NCBI GenBank assembly: GCA_951406725.2
Contig: OX597838.1
Span: 20,832,001-20,896,000, forward strand
Reading direction: 5' to 3'
DNA from: Octopus vulgaris
Lineage: Eukaryota
Length of the DNA: 64,000 nucleotides
Shown here: positions 4,140-53,440 of the stretch, piece after piece
How positions within the stretch are numbered: the first letter of the stretch is position 1
Layout of the letters: every line of letters starts with the position of its first letter
The notes under the pieces: generated by a model
Database searches by the model: none
Told to the model about the DNA's origin: nothing
Seen by the model: only the letters and a program-made list of their open reading frames with translations
Position numbers and translations under genes: made by a program

Positions 4140-4200
4140 TGGCTTTGTTGGAGGTGTGCGGGACCTCGGCCAGTATTTCAAGGACGATGATTTGGCCTCT
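4140..4200 (+). CDS. ACAP: ACAP BAR-domain coding exon
   Basis: TAG acceptor after a T-rich tract, 61 nt, GTAAGT donor. Completes the AAT codon, then GFVGGVRDLGQYFKDDDLAS (compare ACAP2 QFMNGIRDLAQYSSNDAVVE). Ends in phase 0. Confidence 0.92.
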
Positions 4201-13889: not shown

Positions 13890-14353
13890 TGCACTGTGTG
13901 AAAGTACATTTACATGCGTGTAGGCATCTCGAGAGTCATTCAGAAATTCCATTAATAATCTTCTTGTTAGTCCACAGAATAGACAGGGATTCCTCGGAGC
14001 AGAGACGGCATCTCCTGGAAATTATATTGTATGGTTTCGTGTACCTTACTATGGACCAATTAATGCTGTACTTCATTTTATCCTCCTTCAATTGCCATAC
14101 ATGTTGAATGTCTCTTATTGATTGTCTTAAAGCTGGCAATATGGTTATGATAATGATTCTTAAATGAATCAGCCGTCTGCCCAGTGTAAACATAGAGCCT
14201 GCCCCTTGTGTGGACAGTACATTTATATACAAGATTTGTACTCATACAGAGGTTCATGAAAGGACATTTCGATTTTTCTCTGCATGAGCTTTTATCATAT
14301 TTATTTGTATATAAGGCAGTCCCAACTCCATTTACTGGAGTTAGCTGTATCAT
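13890..14353 (-). mobile_element. Penelope-like retroelement remnant: GIY-YIG endonuclease
   Basis: Frameshifted ORFs give SCREKSKCPFMNLCMSTNLVYKCTV...YTGQTADSFKNHYHNHIASF...HST and QHVWQLKE...INWSI...CRLCSEE...IN..SE. These are the Cys-rich linker and GIY-YIG motifs typical of Penelope-like elements. Confidence 0.85.
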
Positions 14354-14470
14354 CTACTGAAAATTGGTTGTTGTTGGTGTTTATCATTGCGGTTTACTTC
14401 TACTTGGTTGGTATTTAGATGGAAATGTTCACAAGATCCAGTAGGTGGTTTATTTAATATTTACCGCATT

Positions 14471-14600
14471 TTGCTAGTTAAGAATATCTCTACAAGAATC
14501 TTAATATTATCAGCTAATAATAAAACTTTTGAATCACATGCAACTTATAATGCAGCTCTAGCTAGGGCTGGGTACCGTGAAAAAATGTAATATATACAAG
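14471..14600 (+). mobile_element. Penelope-like RT C-terminal (thumb) fragment, inverted relative to the adjacent endonuclease
   Basis: LVKNISTRILILSANNKTFESHATYNAALARAGY resembles the PLE motif (I..RLS..S.....F......Y..AL...GY). Confidence 0.6.
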
Positions 14601-28722: not shown

Positions 28723-28913
28723 GGTCAATAATAAATAGATAAATATATATATATACATATACCGGAGTAAACACATAAATGTGAAACAAGGTGGAAAAAA
28801 GAGTACTCAAATACCAGTGGTAGAGTAATATGCTTTATTTAAAACAGCAGAAAATTCAACAAAACCTGTTACTCTGAGTTTCCCATTGCCGCTCATCGGA
28901 CAGTTTTTGCTAT

Positions 28914-30063
28914 ATTATAGCAAAAACTGTCCGATGAACGGCAACAGGAAACTCAGAATATAGCAAAAACTGTCCGATGAACGGCAACGGGAAACTCAGA
29001 ATATAGCAAAAACTGTCCGATGAACGGCAACAGGAAACTCAGAATATAGCAAAAACTGTCCGATGAACGGCAACAGGAAACTCAGAATATAGCAAAAACT
29101 GTCCGATGAACGGCAACGGGAAACTCAGAATATAGCAAAAACTGTCCGATGAACGGCAACGGGAAACTCAGAATATAGCAAAAACTGTTCGATGAACGGC
29201 AACGGAAACTCAGAATATAGCAAAAACTGTCCGATGAACGGCAACGGGAAACTCAGAATATAGCAAAAACTGTCCGATGAACGGCACGGGAAACTCAGAA
29301 TATAGCAAAAACTGTCCGATGAACGGCAACGGGAAACTCAGAATATAGCAAAAACTGTCCGATGAACGGCAACGGGAAACTCAGAATATAGCAAAAACTG
29401 TCCGATGAACGGCAACAGGAAACTCAGAATATAGCAAAAACTGTCCGATGAACGGCATCAGAATATAGCAAAAACTGTCCGATGAACGGCAACGGGAAAC
29501 TCAGAATATAGCAAAAACTGTCCGATGAACGGCAACGGGAAACTCAGAATATAGCAAAAACTGTCCGATGAACGGCAACGGGAAACTCAGAATATAGCAA
29601 AAACTGTCCGATGAACGGCAACGGGAAACTCAGAATATAGCAAAAACTGTCCGATGAACGGCAACGGGAAACTCAGAATATAGCAAAAACTGTCCGATGA
29701 ACGGCAACGGGAAACTCAGAATATAGCAAAAACTGTCCGATGAACGGCAACGGGAAACTCAGAATATAGCAAAAACTGTCCGATGAACGGCAACGGGAAA
29801 CTCAGAATATAGCAAAAACTGTCCGATGAACGGCAACGGGAAACTCAGAATATAGCAAAAACTGTCCGATGAACGGCAACGGGAAACTCAGAATATAGCA
29901 AAAACTGTCCGATGAACGGCAACGGGAAACTCAGAATATAGCAAAAACTGTCCGATGAACGGCAACGGGAAACTCAGAATATAGCAAAAACTGTCCGATG
30001 AACGGCAACGGGAAACTCAGAATATAGCAAAAACTGTCCGATGAACGGCAACGGGAAACTCAG
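28914..30063 (+). repeat. Tandem array, 27 copies of 43-bp unit aatatagcaaaaactgtccgatgaacggcaacgggaaactcag
   Basis: Counted by eye; highly homogeneous with a few 1-nt variants and one 9-nt deletion. Sits inside an inverted repeat (left arm about 28829-28916, right arm to about 30108). Confidence 0.97.
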
Positions 30064-30076
30064 AGTAACAGGTTTT
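30031..30076 (+). ncRNA. Putative variant minimal type I hammerhead ribozyme (terminal unit); antisense twin at about 28861-28906 (-)
   Basis: CUGU-CCGAUGA-aCG(GCAA)CGg-GAAA-CUC(A)GAG-UA^ACAG: stem I CUGU/ACAG, GNRA-capped short stem II, near-palindromic stem III, GUA triplet. The core has U4C and a 10.1-11.1 mismatch, so activity is unproven. Confidence 0.55.
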
Positions 30077-30104
30077 GTTGAATTTTCTGCTGCTTTAAAT
30101 AAAG

Positions 30105-30136
<32 letters not shown>

Positions 30137-31634
30137 ATAATGAAAAAAACAATGATAATTTTTGTGTATATGAATGTGGGTGTGTATGTATGTTGCTGTA
30201 CATGATTTACTTTTTGGTGTATATATGATTTGCTTATTGTGCGAGTATGCAAATAATTGTGCATTTTGTGTGTGATTTTGCTCTGTGTTTGTGCATACGT
30301 GCATGATTTTGTTTGGTGTGTAGGTGTGTGTATATGGTTGGGTTTGTGTGTGTGTGTGGTTGTGCTTCTGTGTGTGAAATATATAAATCTAACCATTTTT
30401 TCTGAAGAATTGTTGCTAAAGTGAAAGTCTTTTAATATTTATTGGTAGGAAGATGCTAAAGTCGCTGTAAGTATCAAAGCATGTTTTTCTTTTCTGTATA
30501 CATATGTGTATATATATATATTTATATAGACTTGTTTCTCATTTTTTTACCATTGCCTTCTCTCCCATCCCTCCGCAACTTCCCTTCAACCGTAGATTGC
30601 TAGCCTCAGTTCTTTTACTATCACCGCCATGTACCATTTCCTTTTTTTTTTAGTCTCTCTCCAGCTTGATGTATTTTTATCTGTATATTTAGTTTTTATT
30701 GTTGTCTTGTTGGCACCATCAATACAGCATCAGACTAAATGCCTTGTGGCATTTAGTTACACCCCTTCAGATTCCAAATTCAAATCTTGTCCAGAATTGT
30801 TTTGCCTTTGATCTCTCCGGGGTGGTGGAAGTTAGATAACACAATTATCAGTAGTATACTAGGGTCAGTTTTTAAGCAATCCTGCCCCAAATATGCTGCC
30901 TTGTGACTAAATTAGAAAAAAAAAAAAAGTATTTTGCAAGCTTTTAGTATTTTTTAATTTTGTTTATTTTAGTGATTTTATTATTTTTGTACTTCTGTAT
31001 ATTTTGTTTTTACTCTTCACGTTGTGTCTCACAAATAGTTTCACTAAAAGATAATTTTTTTTTTTGTTTTCCGTTTTGGTTTTGTCACATGGTCTTGCTT
31101 TACCTTCTTTGTAGTTTCCTGTTTTTGGCTGTTATTTCTTTGTTCATCTGTTCTGTAACCCGCACTGACCGACCTCCCCTCAGACATGCTTTCACTACAA
31201 CTGCTTCTATTATCACTATAATAATTAACTATTACAGTGATAATTAGTTTTTAGTATTGTGTTGTTGTTACTGTTGTTGTATCCACTCATCTAAAAATCA
31301 TGTTTTTTTGTTGATTTTTCTCTTCAATTTTTTTTTTCTCCATTGTTACAATTGCTTTATTAGTAATTCTAACAAATTGAAAATTTAAAGATTCTAGCAG
31401 ACATTTTGTGACCCACTTTCAAATTTTGTATGTTGTTTGTATCCCAACCTTTTTAAAGTAATGCATGATTATTAAAGTAAATTTCCAGTTCTTTTGTCTT
31501 GGAGTGAAAACAAATAACCTGTCTATAAATCCAAGAAAGAAGGAATTATAGCCATTAAGTTTTGATTTGGTGTTTCCTGTCTCCAGGCCCGAATCAATGG
31601 AATAAATGCCACTTATCTCTTGGAATCATTTTAA

Positions 31635-52924: not shown

Positions 52925-53440
52925 CCCTCCTACTTTTCGCGTCTCCTACCTCCTACTTTTCGCGTCTCCTACCTCCTACTTTTCGCGTCTCCTACCTCCT
53001 ACTTTTCGCGTCTCCTACCTCCTCCTTTTCGCGTCTCCTACCTCCTACTTTTCGCGTCTCATACCTCCTACTTTTCGCGTCTCCTACCTCCTACTTTTCG
53101 CGTCTCCTACCTCCTACTTTTCGCGTCTCCTACCTCCTCCTTTTCGCGTCTCCTACCTCCTACTTTTCGCGTCTCCTACCTCCTACATTTCGCGTCTCCT
53201 ACCTCCTACATTTCGCGTCTCCTACCTCCTACTTTTCGCGTCTCCTACCTCCTACTTTCCGCGTCTCCTACCTCCTACTTTCCGCGTCTCCTACCTCCTA
53301 CTTTTCGCGGCTCCAACCTCCTACTTTTCGCGGCTCCAACCCCCTACTTTTCGCGGCTCCTACCCCCTACTTTTCGCGGCTCCTACCCCCTACTTTTCGC
53401 GGCTCCTACCCCCTACTTTTCACGTCTCCTACCTCCTACT
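52925..53440. repeat. 23-bp minisatellite (ctcctacctcctacttttcgcgt), about 22 copies
   Basis: Direct inspection; variants accumulate toward the 3' end. Confidence 0.97.

Follow-up and report, generated by a model that had tools for sequence, protein, structure and literature searches.

A probable retroelement-derived minisatellite of hammerhead-like half units in an ACAP intron of Octopus vulgaris

Could an intron of Octopus vulgaris carry a battery of ribozyme enzyme strands next to a single substrate? The question is raised by a tandem array of hammerhead-like halves that ends in one complete motif, inside a fold-back, in the window studied here (the whole stretch of 64,000 nucleotides). 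The sequence-only reading of this DNA had proposed an architecture of 26 trans-format enzymes and one substrate on the ACAP pre-mRNA, with the caveat that the array may be an inactive slippage product. In our analysis, the caveat turns out to be a better reading than a working trans architecture. Judging from sequence comparisons, the array is a retroelement-derived minisatellite at a standard inverted insertion of a Penelope-like element (PLE). We consider it likely that a severely 5′-truncated Hydra-clade element inserted head to head, that a junction segment was probably duplicated and later became a minisatellite, and that the product is, by prediction, catalytically silent.

The locus and its host gene

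The array is in sense orientation within an ACAP intron, as had been claimed, and ACAP exons were found on both sides of it (an ACAP exon is 97% identical to Octopus proteins). The features, in window coordinates, are the following.

4140..4200, plus strand: upstream ACAP coding exon, where the host intron starts (tblastn, 95% identity; splice sites)
28743..28761, no strand: left (TA)n-rich target remnant (from the sequence; family copies end in (TA)n)
28762..28911, minus strand: left arm, the 150-nt long 3′ end of an element assigned to the Hydra clade (hammerhead-like motif, 84-nt end, 66-nt tail)
28912..28918, no strand: fold-back junction, a few non-element bases at the symmetry centre (near-identical centre at locus L170)
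28917..30023, plus strand: 26 partial units with a period of 43 nt (two units measure 42 nt and one 34 nt; junction unique to the locus), each with the stem I 5′ strand, the CCGAUGA core, a 2-bp stem II with a GCAA loop, GAAA and the stem III 5′ strand
30026..30105, plus strand: right arm, which is the element's short 3′ end in full (found at 99–100% identity in at least 40 places)
30034..30071, plus strand: sole complete sense-strand hammerhead-like motif (type I, U4C core, near-palindromic stem III)
30105..30133, no strand: right (TA)n target remnant (repeat scan)
30449..30466, plus strand: downstream 18-nt ACAP microexon (EDAKVA), where the host intron ends (AG and GTAAGT borders; frame fits both neighbours)

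A scan of the window placed the tandem array at 28916-30064 with a period of 43 nt, 27.0 copies and 97% matches, in agreement with the 27 units of 43 nt first counted. Within the locus, the core motif has 27 plus-strand matches and one minus-strand match, against 3.5 expected over the whole window. One and the same sequence had been ascribed to every unit; this holds for 20 of the 27, which are identical and equal to the family sequence, but not for the other seven. Units 1, 3, 4 and 12 carry the same single G>A in stem II, unit 7 combines C3U with a 1-nt loss, unit 9 lacks 1 nt, and unit 13 lacks 9 nt, GAAA among them. Units 14-27 are uniform and form a block of 14 at the right end of the array. 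Each unit has three CpGs and hence six mutable positions; four changes fall at one of these positions and none at the other five, a pattern with a chance of ~0.005 at equal rates by our own arithmetic. The AGUA^ACAG continuation is confined to the last unit, just as had been noticed, with a putative cut after 30067. A search of the genome (2.8 Gb) for the exact array junction gave 25 matches, every one of them at this locus. The length of the array is known from one assembly, GCA_951406725.2; contigs from 4 of 24 sequencing runs were compared with the stretch from the left flank through the left arm to the second unit, where copies of the family from elsewhere dominated and most joints could not be seen.

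An arm followed by its reverse complement was likewise confirmed, as an inverted repeat of 89 nt with 96% complementarity (28828-28916 and 30021-30109). The left arm itself had been described as about 85 bp at 28829-28916 and is here corrected to 150 nt on the minus strand at 28762-28911. It differs at 3 of 150 positions from three natural copies (L012, L014 and L026), and its 150 nt are also found just upstream of intact ORFs of the family. The right arm shows 0 differences over 79 nt from three natural copies.

The microexon begins 343 nt downstream of the right arm, i.e., of the end of the fold-back. Since its six residues are present in two and absent from three of five alignable homologues, a clam included, the microexon may be a conserved cassette exon. 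GCATG motifs, which we take to be RBFOX-type, flank it on both sides. An unrelated 23-nt minisatellite (window 52926-53440; 22 copies, 96%) lies in a different ACAP intron, and thus local expansions are not special to the array.

The parent element and its hammerhead-like motif

The part of the element's end that follows the cut site has 8,503 exact matches genome-wide and the whole motif has 5,437, with no match to reversed controls in either case. Copies of this family end at 84 or 150 nt and are then followed by (TA)n. Both orientations occur within 1.5 kb at 19 of 30 loci, so that head to head in (TA)n is how the family usually inserts, in keeping with the earlier statement that truncated Penelope insertions often leave inverted pLTRs. 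Between widely spaced inverted pairs lies a frame for a reverse transcriptase (RT) and an endonuclease (6 of 11 stretches). With the N-terminus of a homologue as query, dozens of 727-residue open frames were found in the genome; eight of ten stretches around such matches belong to this family and the other two to a second one. A direct tandem sets the element unit at 3,430 bp, with the 150-nt piece just upstream of the ORF. Intact elements were seen at L151:1233-8176, L152-L156, L159 and L160, one of them in direct tandem with a period of 3,430. The number of 727-residue open frames suggests that the family was recently, or is still, active.

The parent protein is encoded by a single 711-aa ORF, in which an RT with YRDDG precedes a C-terminal endonuclease. 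The VVY...YTG core of the latter, read by eye, is presumably of the GIY-YIG type. The nuclease core has no internal cysteines. The protein at L153 carries RWK at 37, DKT (replacing DKG) at 113, and the CxCX5C linker, CxxC and CxH at positions 562, 667 and 695; CCHH is absent. Several family copies have F at the second C. Copies with the C4/G core variant of the window are linked to this same ORF, with 86-91% identity (L236, L237, L243, L252 and L253). Pfam and PDB sequence searches with a 507-aa part of the parent ORF gave no significant match, and four homologues of the ORF were likewise without a relevant Pfam family.

The Hydra clade has been defined by RWK, DKT, CxCX5C, CxxC, CxH and a nuclease core free of cysteines (Craig et al. 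2021, PMC8557442). The octopus family resembles published members (Hydra-2_Amil, Hydra-1_Obim) in RWK, DKT, the CxCX5C linker, CxxC, CxH and the absence of CCHH, and also in (TA)n targets, a 3′ hammerhead, an inverted truncated copy and a tail; (TA)n insertion and the inverted truncated copy with its tail are all present in the family. By these motifs and by likeness to the published alignments, judged by eye, we assign the parent to a young Hydra-clade Penelope-like element. Thus, the Penelope-like origin first suggested for the unit, which represents the 5′ half of such an element's hammerhead motif, can now be tied to a clade and to intact parent elements. In contrast to published Hydra elements, which are generally <3 kb, the octopus unit measures ~3.43 kb with a 3′ region of ~1.1 kb; its tail is 66 nt rather than 30-40 nt, its stem II has 2 bp, and it includes a U4C lineage (PMC8557442). 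Hydra-1_Obim was rejected as the parent, as both the protein start and the hammerhead differ. Inverted insertions are standard for PLEs (PMC8557442), and opposite-strand pairs have been described in PMC4209133 as well.

Other Penelope-like sequences were encountered on the way. A second Hydra-type family has 717-residue frames in ~2.59 kb tandems (L157:1631-8945 and L158:967-5140), and no hammerhead clearly belonging to it was found by pattern. A full-length copy is followed, immediately past its 3′ end, by a 482-residue frame of a third Penelope-like type (L152:80-1525). Within the window, 13936-14590 is a decayed endonuclease fragment of another large Penelope-like family (9,646 first-look candidates, 150 scored). 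It was rejected as a member of the array's family, as 1 of 30 of its loci matches the array's element, at 81%.

Positions in the motif are given in hammerhead numbering. Stems I and III can be paired on paper, and stem II has 2 bp. The core departs from canonical type I (CUGANGA, GAAA, UH) by U4C, while a sister subfamily has the canonical core. The sequence-only reading had pointed to U4C and to an A.G apposition at 10.1-11.1 as deviations from consensus. They do deviate, but they are marks of a subfamily and not of local decay: 1,553 of the 5,437 motif matches carry the C4 core of the window. The 10.1-11.1 apposition is AA in 80, AG in 76, AT in 15 and AC in 4 of 178 distinct copies, a set that leaves out the window's own loci. 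In this young family no compensatory stem change occurs within the 178 copies, which were partly selected for intact stems. The two large classes diverge by 1.0% and 1.3% per site; the most diverged classes (3.7% and 4.9% per site; 16 and 4 copies) also have C4, so U4C is old in the lineage. The two large subfamilies differ at family positions 14 and 29 (window 30039 and 30054), one with U4 and A, the other with C4 and G. Both pairs are Watson-Crick compatible and could extend an alternative, inactive helix; the pairing amounts to a single evolutionary event and is broken in older classes.

A search with the Rfam models gave no hammerhead match up to an E of 10, and the sub-threshold matches were mostly to miRNA hairpin models. 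The monomer fold was no better than shuffles (z 0.29). The motif is very likely a true homologue of Hydra hammerheads, because it shares stem I, both arms of stem III and the cut triplet with Hydra-2_aMil (File S2, PMC8557442). In many Hydra hammerheads of that file, stem II has one more mismatch at its base, and in a table of the same paper the stems vary between Hydra families yet still pair. The motif string GATGAACGGCAACG was not found in the supplement of PMC8557442. In File S2, loop 2 of the sea-anemone Penelope-2_NV equals the stem II and loop of the family's older T variant at 10/10 nt, by chance or shared ancestry. Other short hammerhead-like motifs occur at L103:2542, L157:1089 and in the flanks of L014 and L030. 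Their stem II has 4 bp and their cores are variant, with C4 or an altered A6, which suggests that several repeat families of this genome have relaxed hammerhead cores.

How the array may have formed

The element's 3′ end makes up both arms: one stops at the short end and the other at the long end with the tail, and each lies in (TA)n. From the family anatomy and from in vitro work on PAc (Poseidon of Anolis), we infer that the RT-endonuclease would have nicked each of the two target strands and begun two cDNAs, with uncleaved RNA as the template and a choice of two start sites. Both cDNAs would have stopped ~10 nt upstream of stem I and been joined head to head. A template slip at the junction would then have copied the 43-nt head twice, and the DNA would later have expanded step by step to 27 units. 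The PAc element belongs to a different clade, and its hammerhead overlaps the start codon, whereas that of the octopus element lies upstream of tail and ORF; the two are alike in having two 3′ ends split by the tail, AT-rich targets, and a hammerhead cleavage that is apparently not needed for insertion (PMC11167929).

Tandem heads of two or three copies, and none beyond three, were found at 19 other loci, 18 of them beside an inverted arm; the searches covered exact heads with periods of ~21-82 nt, and degenerate heads or other periods would escape them. Their break points vary, some falling within the core and several taking the whole motif into the duplication, and the two-copy heads at L043 and L162 break at nearly the same place as the array. 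As the other duplications end at many places, the break just before GUA needs no selection. Junction duplication thus appears to be a recurring by-product of fold-back insertion, of which the ‘enzyme half’ would be one chance outcome. Many fold-back junctions (L080-L083 and L161-L171) centre on a CTAG palindrome ~10 nt upstream of stem I, which is likely a hot spot for truncation or joining.

For the growth from two copies to 27, ordinary copying slips are the most likely cause. The G>A shared by four units, with the other five CpG positions unchanged, suggests one mutation that was copied along, and hence stepwise expansion at the DNA level; the uniform right-end block of 14 units, together with the G>A in 4/27, points to the same stepwise copying. 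Minisatellites derived from transposable elements are common (PMC3389668), and the array is like them in that a short segment of a young element has expanded in place. It differs in that its seed is the duplication of a fold-back junction and that the piece happens to be half a hammerhead. Among the loci found, only the array exceeds three copies.

It is unlikely that a single step during insertion produced all the units, with a telomerase-like reverse transcriptase copying the 43 nt again and again. The clustering of head duplications at fold-back junctions (18/19) and the equality of 20/27 units with the family sequence would suit such an event, as would the unit head, whose match to the top strand is slightly poorer, by 1-2 nt, than that to the reverse complement of 28909-28916. 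However, other loci never exceed three copies at periods of ~21-82 nt, and one variant common to four units, along with the polar distribution of variants, fits stepwise DNA copying. If true, the array would be a record of repeat addition by a Penelope enzyme.

That sequencing or assembly beside the palindrome inflated or created the array, with a real allele of a few units, is again quite unlikely. The array does adjoin an almost perfect hairpin, its last 14 units are identical, and its junction is found at one place only; but its units carry ordered, shared variants, and two-copy versions exist elsewhere (L043, L162).

A retrozyme would have a whole hammerhead in at least two consecutive units, a dispersed unit of ~170-400 nt, and linear and circular RNA. 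Animal non-LTR retrozymes (PMC7229834; bioRxiv 10.64898/2026.07.22.740005) are, like the array, tandem and non-coding, and have their origin in the hammerhead region of a PLE or are related to one. However, each of their units holds a whole ribozyme in ~170-400 nt, much longer, as had been said, than the 43 nt seen here, where 26 of 27 units are without a cleavage site. We reject this reading, as a whole hammerhead is present in 1/27 units, the unit is 43 nt, and the array occupies one locus.

Predicted behaviour in RNA and meaning for the family

The left arm is part of the same transcript as the array and is made first. In the predicted fold of 28750-30115, an equilibrium and protein-free calculation like all folding here, the nine bases around the cut site are paired with the left arm (P 0.9986-1.0), and stem I with any unit has P ~1e-11. 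When the left arm was forced onto unit 1 first, 30067-30071 still lay on the rest of the arm (0.996-1.0). Corresponding duplex energies were -57 kcal/mol for arm and substrate and -14.5 for enzyme and substrate, and in the best fold of the latter pair C3, C4 and G5 were mispaired with the 3′ side of stem II. The minus-strand motif is also predicted to be buried. In the pre-mRNA, then, the left arm would pair with the last unit and bury its cleavage site. Because the opposite arm would pair with the sole cutting site, the array is predicted not to cut RNA and is probably inert.

Removal of the left arm changes the prediction: stem I (P 0.99) and stem III (P 0.86) form between a unit and the last strand, with stem II at P 0.02-0.14 per unit (21 units scored). 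The proposed set of 26 trans enzymes with one substrate keeps its stems I and III when the left arm is absent but is unlikely as a working architecture, with the cut site predicted to be buried, stem II weak and the core predicted to mispair.

Genomic copies bear indirectly on cleavage as well. Unbroken sequence across the cut site was found in 7,646 of the 8,503 family copies; none of the first 100 copies begins at the cut site, the nine not crossing it all having been examined. Previously, the PAc hammerhead has been shown to cleave only with its protein, and unprocessed RNA to be the main template for insertion (PMC11167929). The octopus copies that cross the cut site would agree with an unprocessed template.

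It is very unlikely that the array functions in trans as a hammerhead of many enzymes, whether its target is the last unit of the array or other family transcripts. Such activity would find stems I and III ready to form in trans once the arm is gone, a stem I extendable past one mismatch, and a substrate strand in 7,646 genomic copies. Moreover, dimeric action, at low activity, has been reported for PLE hammerheads (PMC4209133), and a viroid hammerhead with U4C is reported to stay sufficiently active in vivo: the change considerably lowers activity in vitro yet allows infectivity (PMC3088659). The evidence for silence is all computed and protein-free, whereas the PAc hammerhead needs protein (PMC11167929). 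In contrast, the predicted burial of the cleavage site, a 2-bp stem II, a U4C core predicted to be mispaired, the 0/100 copies that start at the cut site and the 178 copies, chosen in part for their intact stems, in which no compensatory change was seen all speak against it. The left arm is predicted to cover only one unit, leaving ~25 halves exposed. That these free halves in the intron RNA cut transcripts of the active Hydra family in trans, perhaps with the element protein as chaperone, would be a long shot. If it were true, a natural multivalent trans-acting hammerhead would have arisen from the transposon's own tip and been turned against the transposon, and splicing of the adjoining cassette microexon could also be altered.

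The retroelement-derived minisatellite that we favor gives the array little weight, as one minisatellite among thousands of fold-back insertions. Its form is explained without new biology, although searches of the openly available literature found no report of an array of hammerhead halves. The wider interest may lie in the family. Both 3′ ends, as well as duplications at the junction, can be seen in its insertions, and this has a bearing on the origin of inverted structures in these elements. The U4C lineage, with at least 1,553 matches, and the finding of no copies starting at the cut site agree that hammerhead cleavage would be unneeded for transposition. With its intact ORFs numbering in the dozens, this young Hydra-clade family is a candidate for in vitro transposition work.
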